64,000 nucleotides of DNA, taken from a virus. Taxonomy: Duplodnaviria > Caudoviricetes. The notes under the pieces are model-generated. The model worked only from the letters and a program-made list of their open reading frames with translations, was not told where the DNA came from and made no database searches. The stretch's first letter is position 1, and each line of letters opens with the position of its first letter. Below, in pieces: positions 34,473 through 60,200 of the stretch. Position numbers and translations under genes: made by a program. The stretch covers positions 1 to 64,000 of IMG/VR virus record IMGVR_UViG_3300013936_000015. The stretch is one strand, 5' to 3'.

Positions 34473-37400
34473 TTATTCTTCTTCTTGTGGAATTATATAC
34501 CCACCATCGGGGGCTAAATATGTAAATATTGGTTTCATCTCTTTTGCAGCCGTAAATGAATTTACAGCTGCATTATAAAAGGATTTATCACCAAAAGCTA
34601 CACTTCCTACAGAAGAGGCTAAATTAGTTACAGTAGTTATAGCAAATGGGTTCCAATCAGTAACAACAGAACCTATAGAATTAGCAGCATTAAAATCAGA
34701 TGCTGCATATGTCCACGACTTGGTAAGATTATTAGTAAGTGCTGCCAATGCTGCATCAGAAAACTCTCCACTATCTTTTGCTCTCTTAATCATATCTTTA
34801 TTAAGAGAAGTAAAAAGACCACCTAAAAGTGAACCAAGTAACAAGGTGGCGAGAAGATCTATCCAAAGCTGTTTTATATTCTATTTATATCGAAGTCTCA
34901 TATTTGGATCAAGATTACTCATAAATTTATTATATCCAGTAACCCAAGTATATGGATTATTCCATTCTACTTCATCATCATTATATAGAGCTCTAAATGT
35001 CTTACCAATAGTAAGGACAATACCTTCTTCCCACAAACCTTTCCACTATGTAAAAGGAATCTTCATCTATTTATTTTTAAGTTGATCTTCTGTTACAGGA
35101 GGAACACTTCTATCCAAGTTACCATCTTCATCTGTTTGATAAAATAGTGGATTACCATTTGCATCAGTCATTTGTTCCCATTTTCCTTGAATTTTCACAC
35201 CACCTTTCTGGAAATATTGATTCTTCTTGGAAGTCCAATATGTTCTCATCTGCATGAACAGACTTCCTAAGAAAGAAGCATGAATCAAGGATTTGTTCTC
35301 ATGAGTATAATAACCATAAATTGTATCAGTAAGATTCTTCATGGATTCTATATCTTGACTAGTATATGCCATCGGTAGGGGCTGTCCAAATTGAAATTTA
35401 GAGCCATCTGGATTAGTAGCACCTTCCCTAATAAACTGTTCAGCTATGGCAATGTATAAGGCTTCCTGCTTATGATATTCTTCAAGATTAGATTTATCTC
35501 CTTTACTGTATAAACTGAATCTTGCATCTTTTTTAAAATCATAGACTAATTTCTTATCTTTTACAGTAAAAGCATCATAAGTACCTTCGTGTTTCATTTT
35601 AGCTACTATAATTGTCCATCGGTTATAGAAGTCAGGACGGGATACAAATTTCATTGCTATCTCATTAAGATTATTAAATCCGTGCTTATCAGTTCTTAAT
35701 TTCTAAGCATATAGATTCATATCCATATCATTAACACCCATCCACTCATTCATTAACTATAGTTTAGTAGGATCATCAGAGAAATGCATCATCTCTTTTT
35801 CTACTTCAACAAAAGCATCTTTCATATTCTTAAAAGTAAATGCCTATGTGCCGTCTGGTTTTCTTATAATTAAAGATATATCATTCCACAATCCTTGTAA
35901 TTTTTGCCCTATCCATTGTACTGGCCGGAAAGCAAGTGCCATAAAGCTGGCAGCCTATCTTATTCTAGAAGAAGTTTCTCTTACTCCTTTAGCCGTGTCA
36001 GAATTACCTAACATAGGATCATTTTCAAGAGGCTGATTTTTAATTCTAGATCTTAGATAATCTTCGTAGTATTCTACATCATTAACAAATTTAGTATTCT
36101 ATGTAGCACCCATATTAATCAAATATGCCATACCTGCTTTTACAGTAGGCATAATCTAATCAATATGTTTTTTTGTAGAATAAGCAACCATATGTTTGAA
36201 CAATAAATCTTCTAGATTCTATTCAAAATAAGCAGTGCCATATTGTTTTATAATATCCAGACGATGCTATAAGTTTGTACCATCAGAATCTGGTTCTGTA
36301 CTATCAAATATTGTATTTAATTGATACAATTGCTCTGCTGCCTCATAATTATTAGAAGAATCAAATGCACCTTCAAACTTAGCACGCAATTCCTTTAAGG
36401 CATTCTTAGGACTAAGTGCTTTAAATGTTTCTTTCACAGAGTTCCATAAAGAAATCTAATAGTCTTCAAATTGCCCTTCTTCGTTAATTTTCTTTTTTAC
36501 ACCAGCATTTCTTTGATTTGTCCTACTTGCCATACATAAAGGAACACGATAATATCTTATATCGTTATTCTATTTCATTCTTTCTAATTCAGAATCAGTA
36601 TAATTCCATCTGTCCTTATTGATAACATCCAGAGCAAATTCAAGAAACTTTTTCTCTTCACCATGTAAATCATTAATATATTTGAATCTAAAATCACCAT
36701 CTGGAGTTAGCTCAAACATATTATTATACAACTAAGTATCATTCTAAACTGTAGAAGTAAGATAGCCGTAATTTTTTTCTTTCTTTAGTCTTTCAAGATG
36801 CATTCTTGTTTTACTAACAATGTCTCTAGCATCATCTCTTACTCCCTAAAGAGCAATCTTATGAACTTTTGTAATACTATTGAGAATATTAGAAATAAGG
36901 TTTCCGGGGTTATCTGTCTATGTACCATGTATACCGGTATTTAGGAAAGAATTGATACTTAATCCACCTTCTAACCATTTAGCAGATTCTTTTAGTTGCT
37001 GTTTATATTGAAACCCTTGTAACTCTCCAATTTCAATAAGACAATTATAATAAAATCTATAAATTTCTGAATCAAGAGTGCCAGCATTTATCTAAGTTTC
37101 AGTAAGCTGCTTAATATTATAGTCTTTTTCTAATTGTTTTATAATAGTAGTAAGAAGATTAATTTTAGACTACACATTAACATTGTCTTCTGCCATCTCC
37201 TAAATCTAATTGGAACATTTATTATAAACATCCTATTGGTTAAGTTTATATGGAGATTGGTTAGATATTAATTCTGCCAATTGGTTTTTAAGAAGCTGCC
37301 ATCTTGTACCAAATTTTATAACCCCAGATTGAATATTATCATCCCCTTCAAGAGGTGCATATTCTTTCAATCTATTTAGAGAATATAAAATTTGTTCATT

Positions 37401-39542
37401 AGAAGCATCAACACCTTGGCCAGTATAGGGGTTAATAACAATCATATTACCTACTACTGCAGTATTATAAGAACCTGAAAACATCCCCGGCATCTAATTT
37501 AAGAATAATGCTGCTTCTATAAGTTCTCTGTTACCATTAGCATCTTCCAACATTTTAGAATCCTAAATAGTTTGTTCTACAGAGTCACTTTTGAAATTTC
37601 TGGTAAGTAATACATTTCCATCCTTTGTACTTTTGATATATTTAGGATTAGAAGTCGTTAATTTAATTACATCTACTTGATTAGTAATTTTATTTCTAAT
37701 CATTACAATACCAAACAGTTTTGCTGTTTCAGAATTAATTACTTCCCAATCTCTATTACAATATCTACTCAGATAGTTTTTAAACCATTCTTGAATACCA
37801 TTTTTATCAGCAAGATGTCGTGTATTAATACTGTCAATGAATGCTTGAATATTAGTAGTATTATTTTTCTATCCATAAGTAAGAGCTTTTATCACATGAG
37901 AAGCAAGATTTGGTTTTGATTTAGCTCTCTTCTCTCTTATTTCCAATACTTTCTATACAAGCCCTTCTGGGTCTGTATCTACAATATCTTTGCCATAAGA
38001 ACCCTTATAGTGATATAGATTATCAGATTTCTTTTCAAAACATCCCTATTCTTCTAAAGTCTTTCTTACCTCTTCCTCATCAGTACTCCTAGAATCAGTA
38101 AATGAAGGAAAGAATTTAGACATTGCGTTCGTAACGTATTCCAATGCTTTATCTGAATCGGCATCTGTAATCTTTTCTTTTGGAAGAAATTCATCAATAT
38201 TATTAATCACCTTACTTGTTCCAGATGCGTCTACTCTATCAATTTCTTTACGAATATCAATAGAATATTCAGAGTTATAATCAATACCATCAAAAGCAAA
38301 TTTTACTTTATCTGGATTAGTAAGAACCATATCCTTATTTTCACATCTAAAATTACTAAATGTGATAGGAACAATTCGTATTACAGAATCATCTGTATTT
38401 AATCCGTGCTTACTAAGGATTCTTGCATATGTAGCTTGTTGATAAAAGAAAGTTCTCTTTTTAGCAGAAGTATATTCTCCGTATTCTTTATCAGAACATT
38501 TATAGTCAAAGATATGTACCCTACCTTTATCATCCACTACTGCAAGGTCAATAATACCCATTAATTTCTTTCCTGAATCTCCTGTTGTATTAATATCAGA
38601 AGTTAATTTTAATTCAGGATAGAAATCAAGATTATCCCCCTCTCCAATAATATTTCTTATATGGTCTTTAAAATTACCTGCAAAATTAATTAATTGACTA
38701 AGCATCTAATCAGTGATCAATCCACTGTGATACTTGTCTCTACCCATCTGAGTTTTAAGCTCTGTTTCTATTTTGTTTCTGATAAAATCAGTAATAGAAG
38801 GGAATTGAATACCATTAATAACTTTAGGAGCTGCCTCCAAATCAAAGACATAATAATAATTACCTTCCCCATCAGTAAGTTCCTCTCCATTAGGGTTAGT
38901 AAGTTTTGAAAAGAATTGCTGCATTACAAAGTGTACAGCAGTTCCTTCTGGATTTATATCCCCCCATTTCTTCAGTATAGACGATTGTAAATTCTTTGCC
39001 TCTGTCTATGTAAGCATTTTAGGTTGCCCATTTCCGGAAAGATTCTTTCTCTGTTCCTCGAAGTTCTTATACATCTCATCGATATTATTGCCATCAGCAA
39101 GGAGTTTTATCTCCTATTCACTAAATCTATCTCTGATACTTTCATTTGGCTTTAAGGGGCTTGTCCATAAAGATAATCTGTTATTCCAGTAAACTTCATC
39201 TCTAAATTCTGGGAATAACAACTCATTATTTCTATTTTTTCTACCTTCTAGATATCTAGTAACACCAATATAAGGAGGTTTTGGATTTAATCTGATTTCT
39301 GAATCTACATTTTCTGCATTCTATATAGCTAGTGTAAATTCTTTCTACAGTCTATTAGCAGCATCTCTTTGTTCTTGGATAATTTTCTCTGCTTTCAAAC
39401 ATTGATTGGATTTTGCATAAACAATATCATTTTTAAATCCCTCAAATAATTTCTTTTTTATTAGGTATTCATCCAGCTATATTTCATTATCAAATTGAAA
39501 TGTATTACCGTCTAAAGTAAGTGTGAATCTACATGTATTCAT
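34473..39542 (-). CDS. large putative virion cargo protein with RecB-like PD-(D/E)xK nuclease domain (~1689 aa, TAG=Gln)
   Basis: Five ORF-track fragments share one frame from ATG 39542 to TAA 34473; GTAVH...GIIDL...IFDYK...YQQATY. Confidence 0.8.
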
Positions 39543-40693
39543 GAGCAATCCTATGTTAATTGATTATTTTCATCTTTTGACTCCATCATCTTCTATTTAT
39601 AGTTTGAAGCAATTCTATTTATCTATGCATCTGTTATACTTCCTTTAAATGAATTATTTAGAATGCTGGAATTAACCATAGCAGCAACCTATTTAAGAGA
39701 AAAATTAAATAACTGTCTATCACTGATAGAACGCACTGAGTAGCTACCATCAAATATAGAATCTAAAACTCTATACATATTGTATTTTAACTAATAGGCG
39801 GTCTCTTTATCATTCTCACAAATAGTCTTAAACACATTATCAGAAGAATCTGTCTATGTAAGATATTCTGTCATACTCTATACCATAAACTCCTCTAATA
39901 AATCTGTTTGTGTTCTATTAGTATAAGATACTCCATTTCCACTTTCTGCCCAAGTCTAAAAAGCAGAAGATAATCTATCATTAGATGCAATAGTACCAAG
40001 AAGATTTTCATATAAACTTCTATTAGTAGATTTAACGGAACCTAAAATAAGATGCATAAACTCGTGCAATGCTATTTTATCTGGATTGTCTACAGTAGTA
40101 CCATCAGATCCTTTAGTCTTTACATAGATATTTCCATTGTATATAAATCCCATTGCATTGAAATCAATATCAGATGTATTGGGAAGCATTTTTCTTAAAT
40201 CGTCTTCAGTAGCATAATAAACATTAATACCATATAAATCTTGTAGTTTACCTACCATCTCTCTTAGTAACTCTTGTGTATCTATTTGAGAGTCCTATAT
40301 TTCTATATTTGGATTAATAGAAGATACAATGGAAGGTCTTTTTTTAATATTAAGAGAATATCTGTCCCCATATTCTCTTCCTTCTATTTCAAGATCTCTA
40401 TACTAATCATTTAATGTAATTATTGCATCTTGAAAACTATTCTAACTAGAATCTAATTGTAAAAAATTAAATAAATCTGATTTCTATCCAGTTTTTCCTT
40501 TCGCCAATTTTAATTGCTTTCTTAGATAGGGTTCAGAGTTTGCACCATCTAATTCATCTAATTGAGGAAGTTTGCCATCATGTATTGTAAAATAATGACG
40601 GAGCTGGCTTTTTAATTCAAAATCGGGAAGCCCAGACTTAGCTTGTAAGTCTTGGACTTGCCCGTCTAATTGTGGGTCTATACACCTTAACAT
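39539..40693 (-). CDS. zincin-like metalloprotease domain protein (~384 aa, TAG=Gln)
   Basis: GFIYNGNIYV...ALHEFMH; fragments in one frame; ATGA overlap with the next gene. Confidence 0.78.
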
Positions 40694-43600
40694 ATATCTG
40701 AAAGTAATGTTATTAGTTTGTCAATAAACTTCTTATAATTATATTTATACATAGGTTCACCACTACTTCTATTTATTGTTACTTCTGGTTTTATATGAGT
40801 AAAATATGAAGCATAACTATTATATCTCTTATCTTTTAAGAAGTCAATAGGCTTCCCATTCACTTCTACACGTAGCACAGTACCCTATTTAGTTATAAAT
40901 TTGATAGAGTTAATTGGTTTTTCTACAATTTTACCATTCTCCTCTGTTTGATAAGATTTAGCATATTCTGGCAATCCTTCTTGTTTCTAATCTTCATCAG
41001 GATTGGCATAATATGTCTTTTCAAAATTTCCATAATCTACAGAAGTATAATAATTAGAATATTCTTCTGAATTAGGAATTAAAGGATTCTAAGGAGTACG
41101 ATTTCTTACTACAGTTCTACCTTCAGGAGTATTTCTAATGAAAATATCATTATTAGGGTTAGATACAGCTATCTAAGACATCATATCATCTATCTTAAAT
41201 GTAGAATCAGTTTTCACAAAATAATCCTAATCTAATTGGTTGATATAATTATAGTAATCCTCAATCAATGGATGATTCATACTATTTTTAAAGATATTTG
41301 TCAATGCTGTTTCTCCTGTTTTATTCTAATAACAAATAGCGTTATATAAGAAGAATAAGCTTGTTAAATCTGTGCCATCATATTCATAATTTTGTAATTT
41401 ATCAAATTCAGAAATATAATAATCAAGTAAATCAGATTCTGCATCAGAACGTGGGGATAGATTAACACCTTTAAGACTATAAGTCGTTAATAGATTACCT
41501 TCTGGTGCTCTATCATATAAAACAGGAATTAATCTCTAAATAAATCCATTATTTTTTAAATCAGAATCTGTAATCTTCTATATCCTACCATTATCGTTCT
41601 GTACAGTATATTTTCCTTTTTTAAGGTCTGGAATAATAACATCTTCCATATACCTCTTAAAAGAAGCTCTACCGCTGGCAGTGCCTAAATGAATAGATAA
41701 CATATCATCTGCATGTAGTGTTGTACCAGTATACGGATCTTCTATTTCTGTATTCTTTCCTATTTTTACATAATTCTTATTATAATCATATACATATTTA
41801 TTTTTAGGAATAAAAATACGTATACCCCTATCATCAAAATAACCAGATTCTAGTAACCATTTCTAAATAAAGAAGTTATCAGTAAATCTGGCAATATTCT
41901 TATATATTTTGGTAGTATCTGCCTTTGTTAATCTACCTGTTGGTCCACTTATCTATCTTAATGCTATTGGACCAAGATAGGCAAGAGTTCTATATTTAGC
42001 AGATACTCCCATATACATATTATGCTACATATCTAATATCTTTAAGTAATTAAAGAAATGGGGTACTCTGGAAAGAATTAAAGGAATATTAAAGTATTGT
42101 TTAAGACTATTTTGCGACTAAATACATTTATCCCTAAAATCTTGATCAGTTAAGAAATAGTGTAATTTGCTGACTCCCGGCTGTACTATATTTTGTGATA
42201 CAGATACATCCTGTGTTATATTCTCTTCTACTTTAGATAATAGAGCTAATGTGTCTGTATCACTAGTATATAACCCCTAATTAATATGAAGAATTTGCCC
42301 TAATATCTTTAATTGTTCTGCTCCTCTACTTAATGTAGTAAGATCCTCCATTAGAGTAGGATTAGGTTTAGAATAAATTCCATTATTCTATGATAAAGAC
42401 ATTTTTATTCTAAATAAAGAAATTAATCTATCAACAGTACGTATATCATTCTACTGTTGTAATCCATTTCTTAAACTGCTTAATTTCGATATAGCATCCT
42501 ATGTACTCTCCATATCAAAAGAATCAATGTTATTTTTTTCGCTTAAAGAAATTTTCGATAATATAGCACGTTGATATGTATTAAATTTTTTAGTAGCCTT
42601 ATTATATGAGGAAATAATACTACTTACAGACCCTCCATTATATCCAGAGAATGAGTCATTAGAAGCTAATTCTGAAATTAAGAATGCAGTTGGAGACATC
42701 ATTATATTCTTCATAGACTCTAATGGGACTCCTAATGACATTCCAAATAACCACATACCCATTGTATTAGTATCACAATTTAATTTAGCTAGAGCAAGCT
42801 CTTTTGCATTATCAGTAGCTAAAGAAAGAATACTTGATAACATTAATACGTAGTCTCGTTGATTTTGAGACTTTACTGTAGATCCATTATAGTCATAAAG
42901 ATTACCAATAGTTTGATATTTCTAATTACCTATTTCAATATTCTTCTAAATCTTTTGTATTAAATTGGTATCCCCAGTTCTTAGAATATCATTATAAGCC
43001 TGTGTAATAGCAAAGAAGGTCTTTAATCCTACAGCAGCAATACCCACTCCCTTCTTTCCAATTTGATTGTTTCTAATAGCATATATATTAGAAATAAAAG
43101 AACCTTGTGTATTTTTAAGTGCTGCAGTTGCCTTTAATGATTCGTTTGCTAATTTTTTAAAAGGTCTAGTAGCTTCATCTACCGAATACTACGCTTCATA
43201 TTGATTTTTAGGATTGTTGATAATACTAAATATATTAGCAACACAGAAATTCTTTACTGCAGCATCATGTATATTTGGATTTTTAATATTATCAAGATAT
43301 GTGTTATATTTATTTGCAAGATTGATGATAAATCTGACCACCTGTCTAGTTGAGGGACTATCCTGATTATAAAAGTTCAATCCTTTTCTCTATATCCAGT
43401 CCATTAACTCATTAAAATTACGAATCTAATTGACATTTTCCAATGATAAATCTATTTTTCCATCGTCTCTTACAAACAAACAAGTCTTATCTCTATTGTT
43501 AGAATCTAAATAATCATATAAATTCAAAAAGCCATTATCAAATCGGGCTTGATATTCATATCTTAGTATTCCATCCGGCTATGGGGATTTCATAGATGCC

Positions 43601-46600
43601 TCTAATAGCTCTGGAGCTTTTAAATTAAAATATGGATGCCATCCAATAAACTTACCAGTTTTATCAAAGTCATACATAGCTAGTGTAACACTGTCAATGT
43701 CATAATCCATTTTACTTTTATCTAACCGTTTCCGTTAGATTACTTATTTTTTCAAATAAGATGAGACTATATCTTCACTTTTAAGTGCTTTGCGCTTCAA
43801 ACCCACTTGGGTTTTATACCTATATTAGGATTTACTAGTCGTTGCTCCTTCTATCAAAAATTGACAGCTTGGGTACGGATTGTCCAATCTTTAATATTTT
43901 TACTATACCAAGGTAATTACTCTTGCCATTTTTATTAGTATAAAAACTTAGTAATTAAAGCTCTAAGGAGTTTCCCGTAATTCACAAAGTTTTTAAGGGT
44001 TCCAATTTTTAAATTTGTATTCCATTGAAGGAATTATATAAGGTTTAACTAAATTATAGAATTTAGATTTTGAAATATTTAAATGTATGCCTATCTATTT
44101 ATTAGTTAAACCCTCTGTATTTAATTTAATAATATTATCTATAATTTCTGTTGTTATTAAAGTCTTCTTTGATGTAGGGGTAATCTGCATCTTTTTTAAA
44201 TATTTTCTAATGATATATTCAGACACAATCTCTCCTACAGTTTTACCTGCTTCTGTAAGTTCTTTAATCTTTAAAGTGTTTACTTCTTGTGACATAAATT
44301 ATATTAATTAATTTGAAATTAATATATATATATGTCTGTAATATAATATTTTTTTATTTTTTAGAACCCTATAAATAAGTCTAAAGAGTACTTACATATG
44401 CAGTATTAACATCACTATCAATAAAACCTACTATTCTCATAGACATAAATGATTGCATAGACTGTGCCGGTATACGGGAGGCTACCATATCAAGAGATTT
44501 CATAAAAGAAGTATATATCTCCTATCCAATATCAAGAAGGTGATTAATAGATTCATCTTTTTTATTAAAGAAGTTATATTCATTTAATTTTCTCTTTTCT
44601 GGATCTGATTCATTTAAAGCATTAGAATAGTCTTTCTTTAATCTTTCAAACCAACTATTATAGTTATTAAAGAACTTTGAAATATCCTATCCTTTTGCAA
44701 ATCTTTTATATATCCTATTAGCTTCCTTATTATTACTCGAATTTAATGCATTAAAAAGAGTAGCTTGAGAGTTTTTAGAAACATTTCCAGAAAGATTTAA
44801 TGTGAAACTACTTGTGTTATCTAACCAATATTTATAATCAGTAGTAACTATCACATCGTGAGACACTCCATTATCATCAACATATTCCCAAATCTCATCC
44901 TATGGATTCTCATCACTAACCTCATTGTTATTTTTAGACAATGTGTATAACACGTTAAATTCATTGTCTATAACGTCCACAGTACCATTTTCATTAGTTC
45001 TTGTAGCAACATCTTCTTTACGATGAAAATGGCTGTCAGAAGAGACTCTATTACGGTCTATCACATAGATTGGATTATTGTCAAGACTATTAAAAACAAT
45101 GTCATAATAATTATCGGGAATAATGTTTTGTAGAACACTATTTAATAATTTCTTTTGGAAATATGTTTTATCATTAACAATATCACTTAATTTGGTATCA
45201 AATCCTAAACCATATTTAGAAGCAAAGACTTTAGGGAGAACAATCTCGTAAGGCCTTATTTTAATAGAATCGGGAACAATTTCATAGGTTTCTCCCTCAA
45301 TAGTAACATCGCCAGGATTATTAGGATCTAGGTTACTGAGAACTGCCTAAAGCTAATGCATTGTAGCAGCTTTGCCACCACTTCTAAATTGATTCTTAAT
45401 AGTATCAATATCATATAATGAATATGGTTTTTCATTACCATCACTATCTCTAACCTTAAATGTTACATTATAAGGTCTTAAATTTCTTCCCTCTTTGACA
45501 TTTTCTACTATTTTGCTAATAGCTCCACGTCTTATAAGCTCATAGAGTTTTTCTCTACATTCTACAGAATTTACAGTTACCTAAATAGTATTAGCACTTC
45601 CTGTAATTGTATCTCCTGCATTTAAATTCTCTAATTCTTGTTCTAAATCATCAGGATTTTGTCCCTCTTCAACAGTAAGATTATATGTGGTTTCAAAATC
45701 AATCATCGGATGTTCAGTATCCCCTCTCTTCCACAAAGGATTATTATTATATTCCTATTGCAGTCTATCCAAATCTCCTTCTTGATATTCATCCAAGAAC
45801 TTACCACCATATAATTTTATTCTATCATAACTGGGACACAAAACAGCAAGTAACCCAGACATCTTTACTTTAATACCTGCTTTAGTAAGAGCAACCCCAA
45901 CTGTAGAAATCAGCTTATTATAAATCTAACTATCACTAAATGGGATAGAGTCTTTATATTTAAAGAACTCTCCATTTTTATTTAATTCCAAAAGTTTATT
46001 TACAATACTCTATACTGTTTCAGAATTATTCTTCTATGTAATAAGAGCATTTCCAATTAATTCGGCTACTGTATTCTAGAATCTAGCTTTTCCTGTTTCA
46101 GGATATTCTAGATACTAATCAAAAGCTTCTTGATATTTTCTAATAGAAGACTTAGCAAGATTAGCAAGACCTTTATATAACTGGTCAGCCTCATAAAAAG
46201 ACATTCCCCTAGAAGCACAAGCACTAATTACCTAAGTAAACATAGATACATCCTCGCTGTCAGCATTATGTTCCTTATCTAACTAAATACCTGCTTGAAG
46301 TAATTGGATCTTTAGAAAATTAGGTCTGAAATCACCAATTTCTTCTCCTTTTAAATACTTATTGATATTTTCAATATTAGCAGCACCTTGCTTTACAGCA
46401 CCTACAGTAGGCATATAATGGATATTACACTATTTCATTACCTGATAAAGGTCGTGTTGTGTATGAACAGTATCATTTAATTTAATACCATTAACATTTG
46501 CCATATCAGATATAGCTTTAATGCTATACTCAGAATGAGTAAGTTTATTGTCTCCCTATTTTATCTCATAGCATTCATACCCACCTAAAGCATTCCATAA

Positions 46601-49600
46601 ATCATAATTAGAATTAATAGATAATAATCCATAGGAGTTACCATTTTTGTCTTTAATATCACTTCTATGTATAAGCTGTCCTATGTCTTCCCCATTTTCA
46701 CTTACCTCTGTAAGAAGTTGGTCATATGTGTTATTCCCTTTATATTCCATTCCATCAAAACGATAATACTTTCCATCTAGTTTGATATAAAACTATCCAG
46801 TAGTGTCTTTATCATTATTAAATTGAAATGTTTCACCATTATAAGTTTCTAACACATTATAATTAGATAAGATATTACCATTCTAATCCTTATATTTCAC
46901 GTCTGTAGATAATTTCATCATTTGACGGTCTGCTATAGACATTCTCATAATTTCATTAGTAATAGCAAATCCTGCACATTTTATAATACCTCCAGTACCA
47001 GTAGAAGGGTCATAAAAATGGAAGAATTGTTTCTTATTAATACCTACCTTTTCTGCAGCAAGAGAACCGTTTTCCCAATAAGCAGTAAATGGATTAATAT
47101 ACATAGCACCATCAGAGGTAAGAGCGTTTTCCTTAAATCCTGTAATAGTATTAATTCTATCTGCTAAATCAGCAATACAGGTTATCGCTACACTTGAGGG
47201 TAATCCTTGTAATCCGTTTAATTCATAAGCATGCATTGCAGCAGTAAATGATACATTACGTTTTGTCTGGGCAATATATCTACTTGATTCATCACGTTCA
47301 AGAGCATCCTCTAATCTATCACAATAATCATTTGCTTCTGGATAATTAGTACGTAATTTATCAATATCATAACCATTTTCTCTAAGAAGTGCAGCATACT
47401 TCATATCTTCCCATTGCTGGGTAGGAAGATTATCCTAAGCAGAAATAGGGCTAAGCATTGTCATTGCTGTTTTATCCTTAATGGGGTGATTAAATGCCCC
47501 TCCGACAGTAGAAAGTACCCATTCCTGTGTAAATAAATAATTTAGACGATTGTATAAATCAATATCTGGATTAATTTCTACAGAATAGCCATTAGAGATT
47601 AAATCCTTTATTACATCTGTCATAGGACTATTCATAGAAACTTGATCACTTACTAATTTGTTCCAATTAGAATATAGATCGTATTTATTATGAATATCAA
47701 TAGAATTTCCTTTCTAATCTGTTATTGTACAGATTGAGAAGTTTTCAGTATTCTCACCGTCTTTATAAAAGCCGTTGAAATTATCTTCCAGTAAATCAGC
47801 AACGATTTTAGTGTTCTACTATTCAAAATATTTATTTATATTTCCAAGATTATTAGAAGTAAATAAATTCTTTTGTTTTATTAATAAAGGATTTACATTA
47901 AGAAGATGATTTTTGTCTTCTATATACATAGAAGTGTCAATAATAGAAACTGGCTCATTAGGATGGTCCTAATTATATCTTCTAGCTGCATTGTTAATAG
48001 CTTCTAATGGAGTTATTGACCTGTCACTATTTATATAGGCCTCATTCATCTACTGAAAATCATACATCCCATTATATTCAAGAGAAATGTTTTGATATAC
48101 TCCTTCAAAATAAGGTTGTATTTTATGATACCTATCAATAATAGAATTAATTACATTCTTGTAATAATCACCTAACTCCTAACTTATAATCTAAGATATT
48201 GCATTTTGTTTCTCGTCTAAGAAAGTATTAGATGTAAGTAGATCATATAAAGAACCATTAGAAGCGGTAATATTATTTAAATCTACAATAATTCTAGGAA
48301 TATTTGGTTTATCAGAATTATCAGTAGAAAGAAAAGCGACTTTTCCGTTTCCAACAGGAGATTTAGTATTTTTGTTATTATCAAGTCCTTTCAAATAATC
48401 ATAGATAAGACAAGAGGTTTCCATTTCTGCAGGAGAAAAATCAGTAAGAGCAGTAGTAGTAGTATAGCTTGCCTCATCTTTAAATTCTTTAGCTTGAAAA
48501 ACTCCCTTAAATACACCGTTTCTTAAAAGACTAAAATTCTTATAAGCAGAATCACGTCCTTGAAGTTCCCATTGTTGTCTATAACTACCATTTAATCTAG
48601 ATAATGCAGTAGCAGGAAGAGCATTTCCCTCACCATCCTTTAATACAGCAGATGTCAATTTACCATCAATAATTGCTTGTGCTCTTGCTAAGGTGTCTAT
48701 AATAGACATCTCATTCTAACTGGTAACATAAGACTCTCCAAACTTTCCATTCCAATCTGGAACAAGTTGGGAATTAGTATAAAAAGTCGAGAAGAACTTT
48801 TTACTATCTTCTTTAGTAACTTTTTTCTTTCCTCTTTCAGTAAGATTGATACTGTTTTCTTCAGCAAGTCTTTCCCTTACTTTCATTAAGGCTTCTGGAA
48901 ATTTCTTATCAGAAGTTCTACCTCTTCCATCTTTATGAGTAATTTCAGCATTACCAGTATTATATAATACATTTAAAGAATCTGGATTCTGTTTAAAAGA
49001 AAGATATATTAATGATTCCATTATTTTAGGGGATACATTATCCCATACGCCTGTATCTGAAATAGTAACACTCTTTCTCCCCCACTATTTTGCATAACTT
49101 CCAGACAAGTTGTCTTGTAGGTACTTTCTTAATAACTTCTGTTTTTGCTGTTTATTAAGTGTATTGTCATACTTTAATTTCTAAGCATGAAAAGCAGCTT
49201 CTACAGAATTAAAGCTTCCTAATATAGGAAGAGGCTAAAGACCTTTCGATTTTAATTCGGCATTTATTTTGTCATTAATTTCAACAGGTCTTTTAGTAGA
49301 GAAGTTACTTAAATTAGCATTTTGGTCAGTACCACTATAAACATTAATAGAAGCAACTCTCCCTTGTTCTGGAAGTATATGAACTGCAATATACCTGTTT
49401 AAAAGAATATGACTAGTAAGTTTAGTAAAATCATCTAATACTTGATCAATTTCATTATTCCTTAACCCAACATATGCATTATATAATCTAGAATCACTAG
49501 AATCAAATAATGTTGAGTCTATTGTATTATTAATAAGCTAATGAAGTTTATCAGTTTCTTTTTTATTGAGTTCAGATATATTTACAGTATTTCCATTTTT

Positions 49601-51235
49601 AATAAACTAATATTTTCCGGTATTATATACTTCTAAATAAAGATTATTATCCGGATCTCTATTAGTCTATAAATCATATTTTATACCGATTAGCTTATCA
49701 TCTTCTTTGATTTCAGAAATATTACTAATATCAGGATTAGCTCTACGGCTGTTCTATATAAGTAACTCGTCTTGAATAGCTCTAATATTAGTATCCACTG
49801 TCTAATCATATAAATTTCTTAAATAAGTAATATTTTTAGAGGTTCTAAAATATTGAAGATATTTATTCTCATAGATAGTATCACAAACTTCTGTTATATA
49901 ACTAAAATAGTTGAGATTATTATATCCTACTCTATCATTAGCTGCTTTTAAAGTAAGTGGATTGTCTGGATCAAATAAAGAGCTATTTAATGCTTGTATT
50001 AGAACTGTATCAAAGTCATTAAAATATTTATTTAAATATTGCTTTCTAAAATCATAATCATTTAATTTTTTAAAGATTTCTGGAAGATACCTTTGAGGAT
50101 TTTCTTTCATACTAGCAATAAACTGAGGTAGGGTTTTCCATCCAAAGGAGTCAAAATTAATTATTTCATCATAATTTTCATCCGCAATCCTTTTAATCTT
50201 AGCAATGATATACCCAAACTCATTAAATGTCATTGGCCTTCCCTAAACTTTAGCAGTAGATACTAATAACTTAACAATATTACTGACTTCAGAAGCAACA
50301 TCTATAATATCACTGGACCTCCATGTACTATTCATATTAGATGTTTGAGCATTAGAAAGAGAATATTTATCTTCTCCAGAAAATCTAGGAGATAGATTAT
50401 CAATATAGATACTTTTTCCAAATGTAGAACGTAATACTGCATCAAAATTATTAAGAATTACCCAACTGTTATAGCCATCAATAATTGTTTGATTATTCTT
50501 TCTGTCTAAAAACAAATTATTTAACTCATCTGTATTAAATCTCTCATTGCTTAATTCTTTCCCATATTGTGCCTAAATTCGTTCTACAATACCAGTATAT
50601 TTGCCATCAACATACATCTAGGCATCATTTAACATTGGATCCTTTAATCCTATAGCTCTTAAATAATTACATACATTTTCTAAATATCCCTACTGGATAT
50701 CTCTTAATTCCTCATTCATCTATACATCATTCTAAACAAGAATACCTTGATTGTTAGATGTATAGAATAAACAATTCACTCCTAATTTGGTAGATTCTTG
50801 TTTACAATATCTTTTAGCGGCATAACTATTGCTAAAACTTTCTAATAAATAAGAATTAGTAAATGTCTTTTGTAACTCTTCTTTATCGTTAAGCTTTTCT
50901 AGTCTGTCTGTAGTAGTCTATTCAATATTAGGTTTAGGAGATGTTTGTGCATATGAAATTAATCCATTTCTGATAGCATCCTTGTTTAAAACAAAATCAG
51001 AAAGATTATCATTTTCCATCTTTACAAAATCTTCAAAATAATCAGAACAAATATTAACAGCTTGCTCTAAATTTTCACTATCTTTTAGGCTGTATTCTTC
51101 TCCTAAAGTTTTTAATATCTACGTAGCTTTTTCAACTACATTTGAGGCATTTACCTCATCTGCATTACTTAATGGGGTGGCGAAAGAATTTTCCACCGCC
51201 CCATTAAATTCACTTTCACTGAATGCACATTTCAT
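40687..51235 (-). CDS. virion RNA polymerase, double-psi beta-barrel (~3297 aa, TAG=Gln), spliced: exon1 51235-44363, exon2 43707-40687
   Basis: All fragments keep frame on each side of the intron; splicing restores RIPAQ...QGS|DYDID catalytic motif. Confidence 0.85.
43708..44362 (-). mobile_element. group I intron immediately before the RNAP DYDID motif
   Basis: Exon ends GGTTCT (U), intron ends G; agggttct|aa pairs with ttggaaccct (U.G at the splice site); aacgact and aagatatagtct core motifs. Confidence 0.88.
43993..44295 (-). pseudogene. internally deleted homing endonuclease remnant (HTH repeats plus LAGLIDADG-type C-terminus) in intron P1 loop
   Basis: 100 aa with one TAG: ...GLTNK(Q)IGIHLNISKSKFYNLVKPYIIPSMEYKF. 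Confidence 0.6.
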
Positions 51236-51240
51236 AATTA

Positions 51241-54200
51241 TTAATTTTTAATAGAACTATTTCCATACTGTTTTTTAGTTTTTCTAACTGGTGGAACTCG
51301 TACAGCAGTAGCACAAGAAGAATTATTATCCACTTTGTTGTTAGAATTAGGCTTAGAATCATCTTTACTTGCAATATAATTAAGAATAGCTTCTGCCACA
51401 TTCTAGTCCAGCGAATTTGGTATATTTCTTCTAATAGCAGCTCTTCCTGAAGGTTTATTAACAAGACTAGCTAACTTCTTTAATGTGTCTGTGTCTTTCA
51501 ATAAGTCTTCAAATGAATTGAAAGATACATTTTCTTTCTTAAACCACTTACCAAACATAGTTAAATATTGAGAATTTTGATCGACAATAGTATTGTCATC
51601 TATCTCAATATTAGTTGTATTTTTTGGAGTATTATCCACTTTAGACATAGTAACCCGTATTTTGTTATTAGAAGTATCAATTTCTATTTTATAGTCAATA
51701 GAACCATCAGATTTAGTAATAACATCATGAGGAGTATTACTATTTAATTGTAGACTATCAAATGTAGTATTTAATATAGTTAAATACTCATTACTTAAAC
51801 TACCTACATCTGCTAAATAATACGTTCCATTCTTTTTAACTAGGAATTGCTTATGTGATAGAGCTGTACGATATATTGTCTTTTCTTGTTCTAATGTAAA
51901 TTCTTGATTAGGTGAACTAGGCTTTAATCCTGTACCATCAAACCAAGACTAATTAGTAATAATATTAGCTTTATCAGTAAAGCTTGGCTGTGGCTATGGA
52001 GTAGAAGACTTGTCATAATTATATCTTGAATTTTCATGAGAAGTCCAAAATCCATTAGAATTTATATACATATTATCAGATACCTTATTCATTAAATTAT
52101 TAAAAACAGTATCAGTAATAAACATATTAGGGCCTATTCTACCACTGGATGTACACTCCTTATTACTAATTCTCTTATCTTGAATTTTGTAATCATTAGT
52201 AATATTTGCAGTAGCAACACCTTCAATATCATCACTTGATTGATTTAATTTTGCTTGATAATAAATCAATTCATTTCCCATTAATGACTGAATAGTGTTA
52301 CATTTTGTACTATCAACTACTAAGCTTTCAGTGGTAGACATAACTGTTTTTGTTGCAATTTTATGAATTAAATATGCAAACTATTGTGACCATGTTCTAT
52401 CAGGATTTGCATCAAATAAGCCACCTAAATTATTATTCTAATCTCTACCTGCTTTACTTGTTAATACATTTGCTTTACCATCACATTTTATTAAAATATT
52501 TTTCAGAGCATTAAATTTAGATACATCAGTCTGATTAGAATTGTCTAAGCCTAATAAGTTATATATATCAGTTTCTTTACCATTATTAAAAATCGCATTT
52601 AATATTCTATATGGAGTAGATATATTCCCTAAAAACTTTTCTTTAGATGTTTTAGTATATACATCATGTACACTTTGAACATACTCTTGTACTGATATAG
52701 TAGGAGTAGATATATATTTAATCTATACCTTCTATTCACTATTTTTATTATCCTACCTATCAAACAACTGTTTCTTATACTGTTGCATTAATTTATCATC
52801 AGTATCAAACTCTGGATCGGAAGAATATAAAATAAAGAGATGTCCCTTTTTAGGTCTAAATTCTTGTTGAATAGAAGTCCCTTTATAATTAAATACATTG
52901 CTTACTAAACAAAAAACATGAGAAGACATTTGAACATCTGCCCTTCTTAATTTAGAAATAGGATAAAAAACAGAGTCTTGTACAATCTCTCTATTAGCAC
53001 TGGTAAATGCTCCTCTATCTATATTAATCTATGGGCCTAAATTCCTCATTTTCCCGGGAACCCAATCAGTATTATCAACATAGGTAATTCCTCTAACATT
53101 AGTAGTATAAGCATAGACATTACAGAGCTGTGCTAAATCAACAAATCCTGCCTATTTAAGACTACTTGCTATGTTAAACAAGGCAGTTCTATTTTTCTCA
53201 ACACTCTGATTAGATGTAAATAACTGTTGTAAGTCAATTTGTGCTTTTAGCAATGCTGGTGGGTTATCATTTGATTGTGGATCTATTAAAGAATCAATTT
53301 TAGAAAGGGGATTATTAAGCTGGAATAAGGGGATTTCTAATGAATCCTTACCATTAATACTAATAATAGCAACAAACTCCCTACGTGATCTATAACCCGG
53401 ATTCTCAGAAAATTCTGAAATTTCATCCGTCTACCTATCAAAGCGTGTATAGTCACCAGCCTTATCTACTTTTTCTTGTTCATTTGGCTTAAATACTTCT
53501 CCTGATTTTAATGCAAATGATACATCTACATTACCCTGCTTTCCAATACCTGATTGTTTAATAGCAGTTATTATACTATTTTTATCGGTGTAATTAAGAA
53601 GTATTCCTCTAAGCTTTCCCATTAATTTAAAAGCATGAAGTAACTGTTGAGGAGTATATGTAGGTTGGTCATAAATAACATTGAGTCGTAGAAAACCATT
53701 AAACCCATCAATTCTATGACTTGAATTTAAAGGCTTATGATATCCAGTAATATTTCCACTAGTATCCCTTTCGGGAACAAATCCAGTCATAAAACATCTA
53801 GAAGAATCAACTAATTGAGAAGTATGAGATTCCCCATTATTCTAAACTCCTTTTAATTCCTCTTGAGCCTATTTTCTTTGAATATCTTCTAATTGCTTCT
53901 GCTGTTTTTTATTTTCATCCTAAATGACTTGTGGACTATTCTATATCTCTTGTAAATTTATTTGCTATTCTGCTATTACATCATTTATCCAACTGTCTAA
54001 TACATTACATACAGGCTTTGTTTTATAAATAATCCGTTTATCCCCACTTTCTATTACTACCTATTTAGGTGTTTTTGTAATAGAATAAGTATTCTTTCCA
54101 GCAGTAATCTTTATTCCTACTTTTTTGGCAGCATTAAAGAAAGGATCTAGAAAACTACCATCTCTGAATGTAATTGTATTTTTATTATCATCCGATTCTA

Positions 54201-57200
54201 TCTCATAGCTACAGTTCTAAAAGTCTAAGCTGTTATTAAGTAAACTTTCCGCATGAGAATCTCTAATGCTTTTAATATCATCCCTATATTGTGTAATAAT
54301 ATCTTTTGCACCATTAAAATTAGGTAAATTATTACTCTTGTTACTTAATTCAGCATTAAGTGTTTTTAATACAGAATCACTTTCATCAAAACCAGATAAC
54401 GCCTTTGTTTTCAGTCTATCTAATGTGTCTCGTAATTGTTGTTCCTAATTCTAAAGAGAGAAACTATTTAGAGTACTCTGAAGATAGTTTCTAAGATTAG
54501 CATCCCTTATTTTCTATATTGTTGTATTAACAGTTTCTCCAGTAGAAAGTCCTATTGTCACATTTCCCTAGTTATCTATACGGACATAATTCTGCATATT
54601 ACCAGACTGATTTGTAACATAATCCAACTGTCCTAAATCATCAGCAGTAAGGGAAGTAATACCAACACATTCTATATCATTATTAGTTTGTTTCCAATTC
54701 CAATCACTCGTATCTATATTCAAGTCTATATTCTGACTATATTTAGCAGATATTACTTTAATAATTTCAGTACTTGCATTTGATAATATCAATTTTTCTG
54801 TATTATCCAATGCAGAACTTTCACGATCCTTATATTCCTATTCTTTATCATATAACTGATTAAATGTAAGAGTATTTGCATTCTACAAGAATGTGTTAAT
54901 TTCATTCTGTAAATCTGCTATAGACTGTGTTGTTGAAGTAGGCGGAACTACTGTAGAATTACTATTGTTTGAAGTATTTCCAGACGTATTATTCTGATTA
55001 TTATTAGAAGTACTTCCAGAAATAGGAGACCCAGTAGGAATACTCTGTCTAGATTGATATTTAATAACACCGGGTGTAAATTTCTATAATGAATTTACCA
55101 GAATATTCATATAATTCTAAGCATATCTCTATTTGGAATCAGTAGAGATATTAAACTCGCTGGTTTCTTGATCTTTAACTTGAGAAAGAGGGAGAACGCT
55201 GGTCTTTTTGGCATTATTAAGCAGAATACTTCCTTTCTACGCCCTAGTAACAGCAGTATATACGTCCTATAGATATGGAACAGATCCTACATTAGGATTA
55301 GCATCAATGATCCAATAATTTCCTTCTTCACCTTGAGCAGAGTTTCCTTCATAGAAATTTATATGGTCTTTATATTTAGGAGTTCCAGATAACTTCTAAT
55401 AAAGTGCCGAATTGGTATCATAATAGATATAACCAATTTTTTCTCCTTTTTCTAGATTGGCAAGAAATTTATCTATCCCCTCTAGAATTTGGTCTATATC
55501 TTGATCTTCTATAATTTTTGTTCCAAGAATCCTATTATCGTCTTCATAATAATGAAGAACAAGAGAATCATTAATATGAGATGTAGAATGTAATCTAGCA
55601 ATTATAGCATTTTGATTGGTAGTCTATTGTACATTTAATGAACGTAAAGATGTTCCAATCTTTGCAGTATGCATCATCTGGTTAGGCTCTAATACAGATG
55701 TAAAAGTATAATTTTTTAAATCATCTATAGTATACCCATTGTCTGCTGCATTCTATTTTATTTCATCTAATTGAGATGGTTCTAAAAGATTTTCCAGAGG
55801 AAGAGTTGCTCTAGATTGTGTCTAGTCTAAATCACCAAGTGTTACTACTGCTATTCCATTCTTCTATGCATACCTATCAATAAGCTATAATTCATCAAGA
55901 GTAAATCTACTTACCTCATCAATAAGAATAACTTGTGGAATTTCATCTGTTTCTTTTAATTCAAAAGAATTAATAATACCTTTATCCTTATCATAGATAT
56001 ATCTATCCTTTCCTTGTGAAGTTTTTACATCAGCAATAGTACCTTCATCGTTAAGTGTAAAGTCTTCCCAATCACTAATTTTTTGTAATAAACTTGTTCT
56101 GGAGAAATTACCCTTTCCTTTATTTTCTAATCCCAGAGTTTTTCTATCTCTTTCTGCATTCTACTCGCTAGTATTTATAATCCATACATTACTAACTTCA
56201 TTAAATTTCTATAAATACTATGCCAGAATGTATTTTACAGCAGCACTCTTACCACATCCAGCATTTCCAAATACTGCAGTAGTATTAATAAAGGTGTTAA
56301 AGTTTATACTATATAATAATGAAAGATTGGTCGCAATAGTATTAGCAATGGTTTCATTATTAACTAATGAATTAATATAGTCTACTCTATCTTTATAGGG
56401 TAGTGATTTTAAATAATCAAATGTTGCTTTCTATGCTGCAATATTAAATTTACTAAGTGTTTCTCCATTTATTACATTAGCAACACACAGCTAAAGTGCC
56501 TGCATCTATGAATCAATAGGAACAATCCCTGCCTAATTATATATAGGAAGTATATCCTTCATAAATTCAGATGTCTTAATAGCTGCAGATGCTGTTAACC
56601 ATCCAAAGAAAGCATTATTATCATAAGAATCAGATGTTTCTGTAAGTATTGTCTAATCCTAGCTTAATAAACTTAACTTCTAAGGATTAAAAAATGCAGA
56701 TAAATCTTTAGTACTATTTTTTTGGAAAAAATCATATACCGCATCAGATAATGAAATAAACTCTTGTTTTATTTTAGTAGTTATATCATTAGAAAACCCA
56801 CTATTATCAGTAATACTATCAATAGTAGGACAATTATCAAGAGCTTTCTTTAAGTCATCTGTATCCCAATCATCGGGAACTACATCAATAATAGATTTTA
56901 ATTTCTTATAAAGTAACTAAGTAGTATTTATACCAACATTAGTTTGTCTATTTAATACCTAACCTACATTAATACCATAGAGAGTTTTATAATATTCTAT
57001 CTGTTCTTTTAAAGATCGAATATCCAACAAAAGATTATCAGCAACTTCACCACTAATAGTAGGAAGTTCTTCCCAAGATTCATCTTTAGAAGAATGTGCA
57101 ACATCATTTAATGTCTTATTAATACCAAAAATGTTATCTCTAGGAGTTCCAGATTTATCATCAAAAACCTTTAAATCTGCATTATCAGAACGAGCACCCT

Positions 57201-60200
57201 CAGCAATAGCTTCTAATTGATTTAATAAAATACTAGCCTATATTAGTCTTTTCTTTGTAGAATCATTAATAGAAAACTTAGAAGGATCACCGTCAGTAGA
57301 AACCTCACTTTTCTATAAATCTTTTAATAATTGAGAAAAATATACTGGTTCAGAAGATACTGATAAATCAAAGGCATCCAATAAACTAGTAATAGGGGTA
57401 TTAGGAAGAGAATTATCAGATAAAGCCTATTCATATTGAACAAATGGAGTTTTAAGCCCTTCTCTACGTGCATTATCTGCCAAATCTTCAACATCAACAT
57501 TAAATCCATCATCAAAATTATTTATAGTTCTTCCTACATTCTACCACCATTTCTTTCTCTATGCTTGAGCAGTCTTAAAGAACATTTGATATGTTCCTCT
57601 TAATTGAGAGGGAATAAACCCTCTGTTTTGTGCTTTTTTACCCTCTTCAATAACTTTATTATCAAAATCATCTAATACTTCTCTAGCCAATTTTTCATAA
57701 AGTTCTGGAGATATTGATACATTTTCAGTTTCTCTATTACCTACTCTCATTATTCTCTTTCCATAAGAAACTGGCATATTAGTTTCTGGATCTATTAAAG
57801 CAGATAATTGTGCATCTTCAGGTAATACAGTAGCATCCGCATCTTGATTTTCTACAGCATCCTGTAAAATTTGAAGTTTAAGAGCAGTATAATCAAATAA
57901 TAAATTAGAAGCCTCCTATGCTCCTTCTGCATCTGTTAAAAACTAATTCTAATCAACCTATGCTTCTTCATTTAAAGTTCTATTAACCTAAAGACTATTA
58001 TTTAATATTTTTTTGATATCATCATCTTGAGCTAATTGAGCATAAGTGTTTTGAATTTCATTTAGCTTATTCGCAAAAGCCTTTGTATATGCAAGATAAT
58101 TCTTAGTAGCCTAATCAATATCATTCTTCTTATCAGATTTTAGATATTCAATATAAGACCCTTTAAGAGTTTCTAACTTCTCTTTTGGAATATCCTCAAA
58201 TTTAGTATTCTCTTTTGCTTCGGCATATCCTCTAAAAGTAGCTGATTTTAAGAATGGCTGTAAGATAAGAGGTGTTGACTCTAATAATGCCGGAGCCATA
58301 AATAATGCAGCTCTTTTACCAGTATTAATATCATCAATCTTCTATTTAACCTCATCAAGCTACTTCTATTTCTTATCAATTAAATCTAAAGTAGTTTTTA
58401 CTTTAGGATCATCTTGTTTATATTTTTGATCAGGAACATTCATACTATCTTTTAATTGATAAATTTCATTATGTAACTATAATGCTTGTGTAGCAAGTGT
58501 ATTATAGTCCTAAATCATTTTACCAGCAGTAGTAGTATGGTAAAGATATTGCCATCTTAAATCTTTAAGAGTATTTGCATCAAATAAACTCTAATCATCA
58601 AGAGTAGCACCGTCCGCTTCTAAAGTAGTTTGAAGTAAATCAACCTATTTATTAATAAGGTCTTTTATATATTTATCTTGATTATCATCCTTTGTTCCCT
58701 GTTCATAACCAATGATATTGCCATTCTCATCAGTAACTGTTTTGGTGGCAGATAAATATTTATTTCCAAGAGTATCATTATTTATCATCTTTCTAAATGA
58801 TTGTAACTCTTTTGGGTTACGAAGCATATAAACCAATTCTTGAGATGCTTTCTGAAATGTCATATCTCCAGTAGATTTTGCAGTATTAAAATTTAAGGTG
58901 ACATTTCCAATACCACCACCAATAGCACCTCCCATAAATGACATTAGATAACGTGTTTGCCATCCGTCATGGCTCATTCTTGAAGAAGACCCGTTAGCTT
59001 CCTAATAAAGATTATAAGTTGCTCTTACAAAGTCTGAAAGAACCTCCTCGCTGGTTTCCTCAAAACCTTCTCCAAGAGCACTTGCTGCAGTAGATTTTAA
59101 GGTTTGTGAAAAAGTGCCCTATCTTCCTACCTTATAGTCTGCTTTGAAAATCTTCTTTCCTAGATTTATTGTTTTAGCCCATAAAGTAGATTTTGCTTGT
59201 TTTGTGGTAGCATTGGCACTTTCTATATTGAATTGTTTAATAGCATCCTTAGTAAGAGCATTTTTAATGCTTTTCATCTTCATCTTATTTGCTCTTAATT
59301 CTGGTAATACCCATTCACCAAGTCCTGTGCTTAACAATCCATATTCTGCTGCAGCATAGCCCATAGTAAGTAATGCTGCTTGTGCATCACTAGCTCCTGC
59401 CTATTTTGCCTCATCATATGTGTCATTAACAGTGAGAAGAGTCATATATGCTTTAGATAAAACAGCACCAGTATTATAATATTTACTAACATAATCCTCA
59501 ACTTGTTTAGCTGCTTTCATCTGATTAACTAATTCAAGTTGCTTAATACTATTCATAGCATTAATAGGATTTTCTTTAGTAAGTTGCTGCATTGTCATAC
59601 CAGTCTTTGCTTCTATCTTTGCGATATTCTAAGCATTAAGAGCTTTCTCAGTTTCATTGGCCATTGCCTGTTGGCCCTTTTGAGAAAGTACTCTTTTATC
59701 CATTCCAAAAATTCTGGGAAGTTGTTCAAAGAGCATTCTTTGTTGTTTTAGTTGTGCAACAGTATCACCAACCATACCAAACATATTTTCCCACGTCCAT
59801 GCTTCTTGCTGACTGTGTTCTGATCTAGTAAGCATAGGATTAGTAGCTTCTGACATTCCTTGCACAAAATTACAAAGTTTATTATCAGAGCCTAATGCTA
59901 TCTTTCCTAATGTAGAACCAATATCAAGAGCTTGTTGTAAAATAGTAGCACCTGTAATGTACTACCCTACTCCCGGAATAAACATTGCACCAACTAATGC
60001 AGCATTTTTAACAAAAGAGCCTGCTGCAGATTTCTATATATCATCACTATCAAGAAAATCAACAGAGTTTAAGGGGTTGTCTTCTGCAGTAAGCACATCA
60101 CTAAGATGTAAAATCTATCTGCCGTTAATACTTCTGCCATTTAAATTTTCATAGTAATATGTACCAGTATCAGGATTGATTTTTAATTCTCCTTTATGAT

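Follow-up and report, generated by a model that had tools for sequence, protein, structure and literature searches.

What might an ADP-ribosyl N-glycohydrolase domain be doing inside the RNA polymerase of a phage? The question is raised by a stretch of 64,000 nucleotides (nt) from a Caudoviricetes genome (positions 1 to 64,000 of IMG/VR record IMGVR_UViG_3300013936_000015; hereafter the window), in which the initial annotation, made from the sequence alone, placed a NADAR domain at 48866-49348, embedded in the virion RNA polymerase (vRNAP) of a crAss-like phage. CrAss-like phages are the most abundant human gut viruses, and their defences and counter-defences are almost unstudied. By analogy with characterised phage NADARs and vRNAPs we favour, at a probability of roughly 0.58, a functional de-ADP-ribosylase that would be pre-loaded in the virion, enter the cell with the polymerase and the DNA, and remove DarT1-like ADP-ribose (ADPr) modifications from guanine.

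A NADAR domain in a recoded frame

The initial annotation had named no strand, which we established as the minus strand. On the plus strand the frame at 48866-49348 is riddled with stops; on the minus strand, with TAG read as glutamine, 161 residues are open throughout with 0 stops, and all of the peptides originally quoted (NANLSNFS, FNSVEAAFHAQK, LSGSYAKQWGR, SFKQNPDSLNVLYNTGNAEITH and FPEALMKVRERL) are present. The segment corresponds to residues 630-790 of an open reading frame (ORF) of 2293 amino acids (aa) at 44354-51235 (-), which contains 45 in-frame TAGs. Three of these lie within the segment (Q38, Q56 and Q88) and do hide the domain from annotation under genetic code 11, as had been claimed: read that way, the region falls apart into ORFs of 100-170 aa.

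Two independent lines of sequence evidence support glutamine as the reading of TAG. When the window is aligned by codon with a 3226-aa homologue, its TAGs are most often opposite CAA/CAG (10 cases) or TAG (5 cases). In addition, the 136.5-kb genome encodes, outside the window at 121209-121281, a tRNA with anticodon CTA (labelled 'Pyl' by ARAGORN), which is likely the amber suppressor behind glutamine insertion in the late genes; the only three other tRNAs are Thr-TGT, Arg-TCT and Ile-TAT. TAGs abound throughout the minus-strand block, which extends from 34.5 kb as far as the end of the window; in-frame TAG is nearly absent from the plus-strand block, where the replication genes lie (those for DNA polymerase, helicases, primase, ligase, NrdD and a sigma-like factor). 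This two-block layout is that of a stop-codon-recoded crAss-like phage.

Pfam NADAR (PF08719) matched the 161-aa segment at 37.1 bits (gathering cut-off 35.1; E 4.8e-9), and scored 29.9 bits, under the cut-off, within the whole 2293-aa ORF. The segment also matched phrog_1017 (E 3e-11), and an exhaustive HMMER search of 1.84 billion representatives returned 412 relatives at E <= 1e-3, 181 of them below 1e-10. An AlphaFold2 model built from an alignment of 36 short relatives was confident, with a predicted local distance difference test score (pLDDT) of 89.7 and a predicted template-modelling score (pTM) of 0.86. The model shows the YbiA fold, in which small beta elements flank helices at the core. 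A Foldseek search of the PDB ranked E. coli YbiA (2b3w; template-modelling (TM) score 0.68) first and the Phytophthora NADAR with ADP-ribose (PnNADAR, 8bau; TM 0.67) second, both at probability 1.00, and the Geobacter NADAR (8bat; TM 0.52) fifth; these are the three NADARs of solved structure. A family profile (A1) built around the segment likewise found E. coli YbiA at 2e-15 and PnNADAR at 1e-10.

The residues expected of the fold are also retained. Mapped onto PnNADAR by sequence alignment, with a 2-residue offset of the 8bau chain, E50 and K57 of the segment (E679 and K686 of the ORF) align with E43 and K50, and with E36 and K43 of the T4 protein AdfN (gp30.3), and R91 and W102 align with PnNADAR R79 and W89. 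The domain call of the initial annotation thus stood up to both profile search and structure prediction, and the inserted domain is confirmed as a NADAR by profile, fold and catalytic residues.

Its further placement, closest to the T4 gp30.3 type, held only in part. H138 of the segment, at +3 after the TGxAx motif, aligns with PnNADAR E125 and the Glu of the YbiA LVE motif, is invariant in 37/37 rows of A1, and aligns with the His of gp30.3. The subfamilies differ in this last-strand residue, with Glu in YbiA, Asp in the NADARs linked to DarT1 and His in phage gp30.3 (PMC11543638, PMC11125620), which makes the window NADAR one of the His type. The E-x6-K pair on which the placement had leaned is common to the whole superfamily and not diagnostic (PMC11543638), and relatedness to gp30.3 in sequence is weak. 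The family profile matched gp30.3 weakly, with the His aligned (hhalign probability 56.7%, E 1.1e-4, 119 columns), pairwise BLAST was marginal (E 0.021), YbiA scored better, and no T4-like phage was among the tblastn matches.

The host polymerase and its intron

The 2293-aa ORF itself has no DxDxD motif and ends with TYLQGS-KK-stop; 650 nt downstream, a 1007-aa ORF starts with M-DYDID. Rfam RF00028 matches at 43743-44041 (-) with 59.9 bits (gathering cut-off 50; E 2e-14), and intron-free homologues of 3200-3600 aa are continuous across the junction of the two ORFs (...TYLQGSDYDIDSV... and ...AYVSTLQTYLQGSDYDIDSVSLAMY...). A group I intron, confirmed by Rfam, interrupts the polymerase immediately before the catalytic DYDID, with the splice junction inferred from the intron-free homologues; exons 1 and 2 joined across it would therefore give a mature polymerase of ~3297 aa. 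Other split homologues (P0159, P0161 and P0163) break two codons later, after QGSDY, and a distant relative (MT835470.1) has split Rfam intron matches around a 234-aa ORF at the same junction; the observation also covers L007, 12322-13381.

The block RIPAQSMQSFM..V....QGSDYDID resembles the beta-prime double-psi barrel and the DFDID motif of gp66, the virion polymerase of phage phi14:2, where 1361-DFDID-1365 defines the crAss virion polymerases (10.1101/2020.03.07.982082). Its core, RIPAQSMQSF...QGSD.D.D, is largely invariant in 14-23 aligned homologues. Searches of the PDB for the host protein, with phmmer from the ORF and hmmsearch from a 14-sequence profile, gave nothing meaningful. The polymerase fold was tested on an intron-free homologue (P0158, residues 1250-2449; 1200 residues, 22 relatives aligned) that shares 56% identity with the window protein over the core. 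Its model (pLDDT 71, pTM 0.72) retrieved as its top 50 Foldseek matches only RNA polymerase beta-prime chains or 6vr4, the phi14:2 virion polymerase (probability 0.99). VIA-align against 6vr4_A gave Z 14.4 and a root-mean-square deviation of 3.6 A over 383 residues, well separated from the next matches, QDE-1 (Z 7.3) and cellular RNA polymerase large subunits (~7). The host gene, on this modelled homologue, is a crAss-type two-barrel vRNAP, and the label originally given to it is borne out by the DYDID motif, by homologues that run on across the intron junction, and by the likeness in structure to gp66.

The likeness to gp66 (PDB 6VR4) extends to a single-chain, two-barrel architecture, the D[FY]DID motif, and a giant late gene beside other giant genes, as well as the Z of 14.4 for the close homologue. 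The window polymerase differs from the 2180-aa gp66 in its length of ~3300 aa, its intron at the catalytic motif, its TAG recoding, its NADAR insert, and in escaping detection by sequence or profile searches of the PDB. In gp66 itself, once the barrels, Connector, trigger loop and bridge helix are set aside, ~1600 residues are left that lack any recognisable homologue (10.1101/2020.03.07.982082). The window gene is a late gene, with other giant genes for neighbours in the TAG-recoded late block. Virions of phi14:2 contain gp66 and eject it together with the DNA (10.1101/2020.03.07.982082); by homology, and from its place in the late block, the window polymerase would be packaged too.

Wider searches of the locus returned little. 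None of the six other proteins examined, late giants or neighbours, could be assigned to a PHROGs family, a related-locus search of viral contigs with a single protein as query found no relative, and tblastn of exon 1 plus exon 2 against GenBank phages found only two distant relatives, both unannotated. Coordinates of the locus are collected in Table 1.

Table 1. Features of the NADAR-bearing polymerase gene (window coordinates)
Feature	Position	Strand	Details
NADAR (YbiA-fold) domain	48866..49348	-	residues 630-790 of exon 1; E679/K686 (E-x6-K), R720, W731, H767 (phage-type His)
Lineage-specific insertion, NADAR plus Lys-rich linker	48752..49357	-	approximately residues 627-828; MAFFT with 11 closest homologues
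Virion RNA polymerase exon 1	44363..51235	-	2291 codons, 45 TAG=Gln, ends ...TYLQGS; ORF stop at 44354
Group I intron with 100-aa ORF (43993-44295)	43708..44362	-	Rfam RF00028; junction inferred from intron-free homologues
Virion RNA polymerase exon 2	40687..43707	-	starts DYDIDSVTLAMYDFDKTG; putative Mg-binding DxDxD of second double-psi beta-barrel

NADAR fusions across Crassvirales

Within its own polymerase family the NADAR is an insertion. Residues ~627-828 stand where the 11 closest homologues have a variable linker of 25-40 residues (MAFFT), so that ~200 residues, comprising the NADAR (~160) and a Lys-rich linker (~40), are added in frame to the non-catalytic N-terminal region. The cassette marks a permissive insertion site in a part of the polymerase that is otherwise unannotated. 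A precomputed NADAR Pfam hit occurs in 1 of the 120 best homologues (of 520 found), and that one is a near-identical sibling cluster. This cluster has 81 members from many metagenomes, on contigs of up to 165 kb, and each of the 14 that were read is 2292-2293 aa long, so the insertion is fixed in a genuine lineage of phages that recurs between samples.

Beyond this family the picture changes. Among 152 representatives of the NADAR clade, 66 are at least 2000 aa long, and 54 carry in the same chain the vRNAP signature R.P..[ST]...G[SG]D[FY]D[IV]D, for which chance matches are expected, as a rough estimate, in ~0.002 of proteins. The NADAR lies on the C-terminal side, 500-1500 residues downstream of the motif, in 41 of the 54, and on the N-terminal side, 100-2000 residues upstream, in the other 13, as in the window. 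A hidden Markov model of the window polymerase family did not detect the other NADAR-bearing vRNAPs (best E 2e-5, 14 bits); their polymerase identity rests on the motif signature because they are too diverged for a profile link. Many 'short' NADAR matches are near-identical to pieces of giant proteins and are probably gene-calling fragments. The survey across crAss vRNAPs that the initial annotation had called for thus found the fusion rare among the closest relatives of the window polymerase, and established that NADAR-in-vRNAP fusion recurs widely in Crassvirales.

In a quick maximum-likelihood tree of NADAR segments, with Shimodaira-Hasegawa-like approximate likelihood-ratio (SH-aLRT) support, the upstream and downstream architectures interleave, and one well-supported sister pair has opposite architectures, which suggests that the cassette moves. 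Two GenBank genomes illustrate the range. In QOR59539.1 of cr126_1, recorded as a 'DUF1768 domain-containing protein', the NADAR is N-terminal and DFDID lies at residue 1509. In cr130_1 the order is reversed, its 5801-aa protein (YP_010113266.1) having DFDID first and a NADAR ~1000 residues further on. Both resemble the window protein in carrying NADAR/DUF1768 in a polypeptide that bears the vRNAP DFDID motif. They differ in belonging to other polymerase families with no detectable similarity outside the NADAR block, in the position of the NADAR (at the extreme N-terminus and ~1000 residues past DFDID, respectively), and in being records with a domain label only and no functional reading.

Other effectors accompany the NADAR in some of these proteins. 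One vRNAP polyprotein (P0020) has a PD-(D/E)XK nuclease match adjoining the NADAR and, immediately after the NADAR, a match to cpYpsA SLOG (E 5.9e-5, just under the Pfam gathering cut-off); in another (P0027), DUF7831, a PIF1-like helicase and a NADAR are fused to the vRNAP C-terminus. In the window, a helicase and a nuclease lie instead in neighbouring late proteins. An SF1-type helicase core (Pfam AAA_19/AAA_30) occupies residues 1510-1667 of the 3189-aa product of 51241-60810 (-), which is encoded with 82 TAGs and for which a PDB search returned nothing; the 1691-aa product of 34473-39548 (-) has a PD-(D/E)XK nuclease match at residues 202-394 (22.2 bits, at the cut-off).

Parts of this arrangement have been described elsewhere. 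Phage NADAR counter-defence (PMC11825919), the idea of virion-packaged NADARs (PMC9503650) and effector fusion to N4-type vRNAPs (PMC5512222) are already published. The polyvalent proteins of PMC5512222 are similar in that effectors are fused into large virion-delivered proteins, including an N4-type vRNAP-ART, and Iyer et al. 2022 (PMC9503650) predicted that virions carry NADAR, Macro and Nudix proteins for use on entry. The present case differs from both: crAss phages figure in neither study, NADAR is absent from PMC5512222, and viral NADARs are described in PMC9503650 as typically standalone, RNA-virus polyproteins excepted. The polymerases differ as well, being of the two-barrel crAss type in the window and of the T7-like type in N4. 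Full-text searches, whose coverage did not extend to subscription journals, found no literature linking NADAR, YbiA or DUF1768 to crAss phages, and the NADAR-vRNAP fusion is visible so far only as a 'DUF1768' label in GenBank. Its interest lies mainly in being widespread, apparently mobile and directly testable, with a 160-residue domain and a known assay.

Function of the domain and state of this copy

To our knowledge, NADAR counter-defence has so far come only from free-standing coliphage proteins. In the reading that we favour, a His-type NADAR, predicted to be an ADP-ribosyl N-glycohydrolase, would be carried as an in-frame insert in the variable N-terminal linker of a two-barrel vRNAP whose production would need both TAG-to-Gln suppression and removal of the group I intron. 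By homology to phi14:2 gp66, the polymerase would be packed in the capsid, ejected with the DNA and used to transcribe the early genes, and the NADAR would find itself in the cell beside the incoming template ahead of any phage gene expression. There it could strip guanine-ADPr set on phage DNA by DarT1-like host ADP-ribosyltransferases, conceivably as a polymerase-tethered cleaner working on the single-stranded template. If the enzyme is indeed tethered to the entering polymerase, a timing problem would be solved, as DarT-type toxins can modify incoming DNA before phage genes are expressed.

The nearest biochemical precedents are T4 AdfN, AdfN-Bas32 and AdfN-Bas60, all three of the phage NADARs tested, which remove guanine-ADPr and defeat DarTG1 (PMC11825919). 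With these AdfN proteins (PMC11825919, PMC11125620) the window domain shares a phage NADAR fold, the Glu-x6-Lys pair and an expected role as a counter-defence de-ADP-ribosylase, and with gp30.3 in particular the His at the last-strand position. The differences are that AdfN is small and free-standing whereas the window NADAR is internal to a late giant polymerase of ~3300 aa, that sequence similarity to T4 gp30.3 is only marginal, and that the Asp/Trp loop is altered in the window. A search of the phage genome for DarT (PF14487) gave no match, as did control genomes, and is uninformative.

Several observations weigh against an active DNA de-ADP-ribosylase. The window NADAR is the most divergent in its tree, where its branch measures 1.41 and the median branch 0.32. 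Of the 38 positions conserved in the family, 7 are changed in it (Q54H, A124S, L129Y, L136I, Q140D, D141G and W145T). The family QD..KW loop accordingly reads DG..RT, with loss of a Trp found in 34/34 family members. In PnNADAR, D130 and W133 of the Asp/Trp loop contact ADP-ribose, together with R79 and W89 (PMC11543638), the correspondence of segment positions 140, 141 and 145 to D130/W133 being one of sequence alignment only. Of the best homologues, 119 of 120 (from 520) have no PF08719 hit. Nor is the intact frame evidence of function, as the essential polymerase lies downstream of it. Finally, phage NADARs have been argued to target mostly soluble ADPr derivatives (Iyer et al. 2022, PMC9503650).

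Members of the lineage are 98.6-99.3% identical overall; varying columns make up 13.7% of the NADAR and 2-5% elsewhere. In DNA from six genomes, the pairwise ratio of non-synonymous to synonymous substitution rates (dN/dS) was ~0.6-2.8 in the NADAR, against 0.12-0.23 in the rest of the polymerase, and amino-acid-changing and synonymous polymorphic codons stood at 20:3 in the NADAR and 50:63 elsewhere (Fisher p = 1.7e-4). These figures also count against a conserved enzyme, and they do not show positive selection in the NADAR, its synonymous fraction fitting neutrality (binomial p = 0.6).

One rival that draws on these data sees the NADAR as a passenger, decaying or purely structural, which came from another crAss phage, is kept in frame only for the downstream polymerase and is no longer an enzyme. 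The elevated dN/dS (~1-2 in the NADAR against ~0.15-0.2 elsewhere), the long branch in the family tree, the loss of the family-invariant Trp with its neighbouring Asp/Gln, and the lack of a NADAR in the closest homologous polymerases all fit this account. We nevertheless consider it unlikely. The Glu, Lys, Arg, Trp102 and His are kept, the fold is predicted with high confidence, and none of the 14 cluster members read (of 81) has an in-frame deletion. The 22 lineage-variable positions avoid all 38 family-conserved positions (hypergeometric p = 0.0016). A core that is still constrained beneath a fast-changing surface seems, at the level of sequence, to fit an arms-race interface better than wholesale decay, and relaxed constraint is also possible.

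One lineage variant (P0286, contig L013) reads TWGKTAFV at residues 717-724, where the window has QWGRKSVT. Its changes are clustered in the NADAR helix that bears the conserved Arg of the LGR motif (Lys in the variant), and the patch may be a compensated frameshift or a small recombination patch.

If the domain is active, its substrate might instead be a soluble ADPr immune signal or toxin, such as cyclic ADPR isomers or ADPr-1''P, so that the phage would blunt TIR/Thoeris-type signalling from the onset of infection. Soluble substrates, together with virion packaging, were predicted for most phage NADAR, Macro, SLOG and Nudix domains by Iyer et al. 2022 (PMC9503650); the succession of NADAR and sub-threshold cpYpsA SLOG match in P0020 points the same way, and the altered Asp/Trp loop could mean a changed ligand. 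Against this, every biochemically tested NADAR hydrolyses guanine-ADPr on DNA (PMC11543638, PMC11125620, PMC11825919), degradation of an immune signal has been demonstrated for no NADAR, and in the window protein the NADAR is accompanied by no SLOG, Macro or Nudix domain, a search of the phage genome for Macro having found none. On balance this substrate seems to us quite improbable. Least probable by some way is that the NADAR removes ADP-ribose from some other macromolecule that the incoming polymerase meets, such as RNA (nascent or of the host), cytidine- or uracil-ADPr, or a protein, perhaps even the polymerase: the tether to an RNA-synthesising enzyme, a recent report of NADARs reversing cytidine ADP-ribosylation (PMC12945103) and the existence of enzymes that reverse RNA ADP-ribosylation (PMC11833690) speak for it, but protein-directed NADAR activity is not reported in the literature consulted and no sequence feature favours RNA over DNA.

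The pre-loaded de-ADP-ribosylase could be part of something larger. Tentatively, and with more doubt than conviction, the vRNAP-embedded NADARs might constitute a mobile, Crassvirales-wide, pre-loaded anti-ADP-ribosylation cassette that hops between positions and between unrelated polymerase families under diversifying selection, with each polymerase cleaning its own single-stranded template while transcribing. A recurrent, mobile NADAR cassette in virion polymerases would point to ADP-ribose-based immunity as an important force in Bacteroidota, and, were this reading true, ADP-ribosylation of incoming DNA, or ADPr signalling, would be a major unrecognised barrier to crAss phages in gut Bacteroidota.

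Two smaller observations concern the recoded codons and the early genes. Across 14 near-identical members of the lineage, residue 667 (49234-49236 (-)), encoded by TAG in the window, occurs as Q, W or Y, and residue 714 (49093-49095 (-)) as Y, W or Q. Since a single base separates TAG from TGG and TAY, recoded TAG positions seem to act as crossroads of mutation. In the unrecoded replication/early block, the 285-aa product of 21147-22004 (+) matches the sigma-factor family phrog_351 (E 2e-50), which suggests that host RNA polymerase is redirected for later genes.

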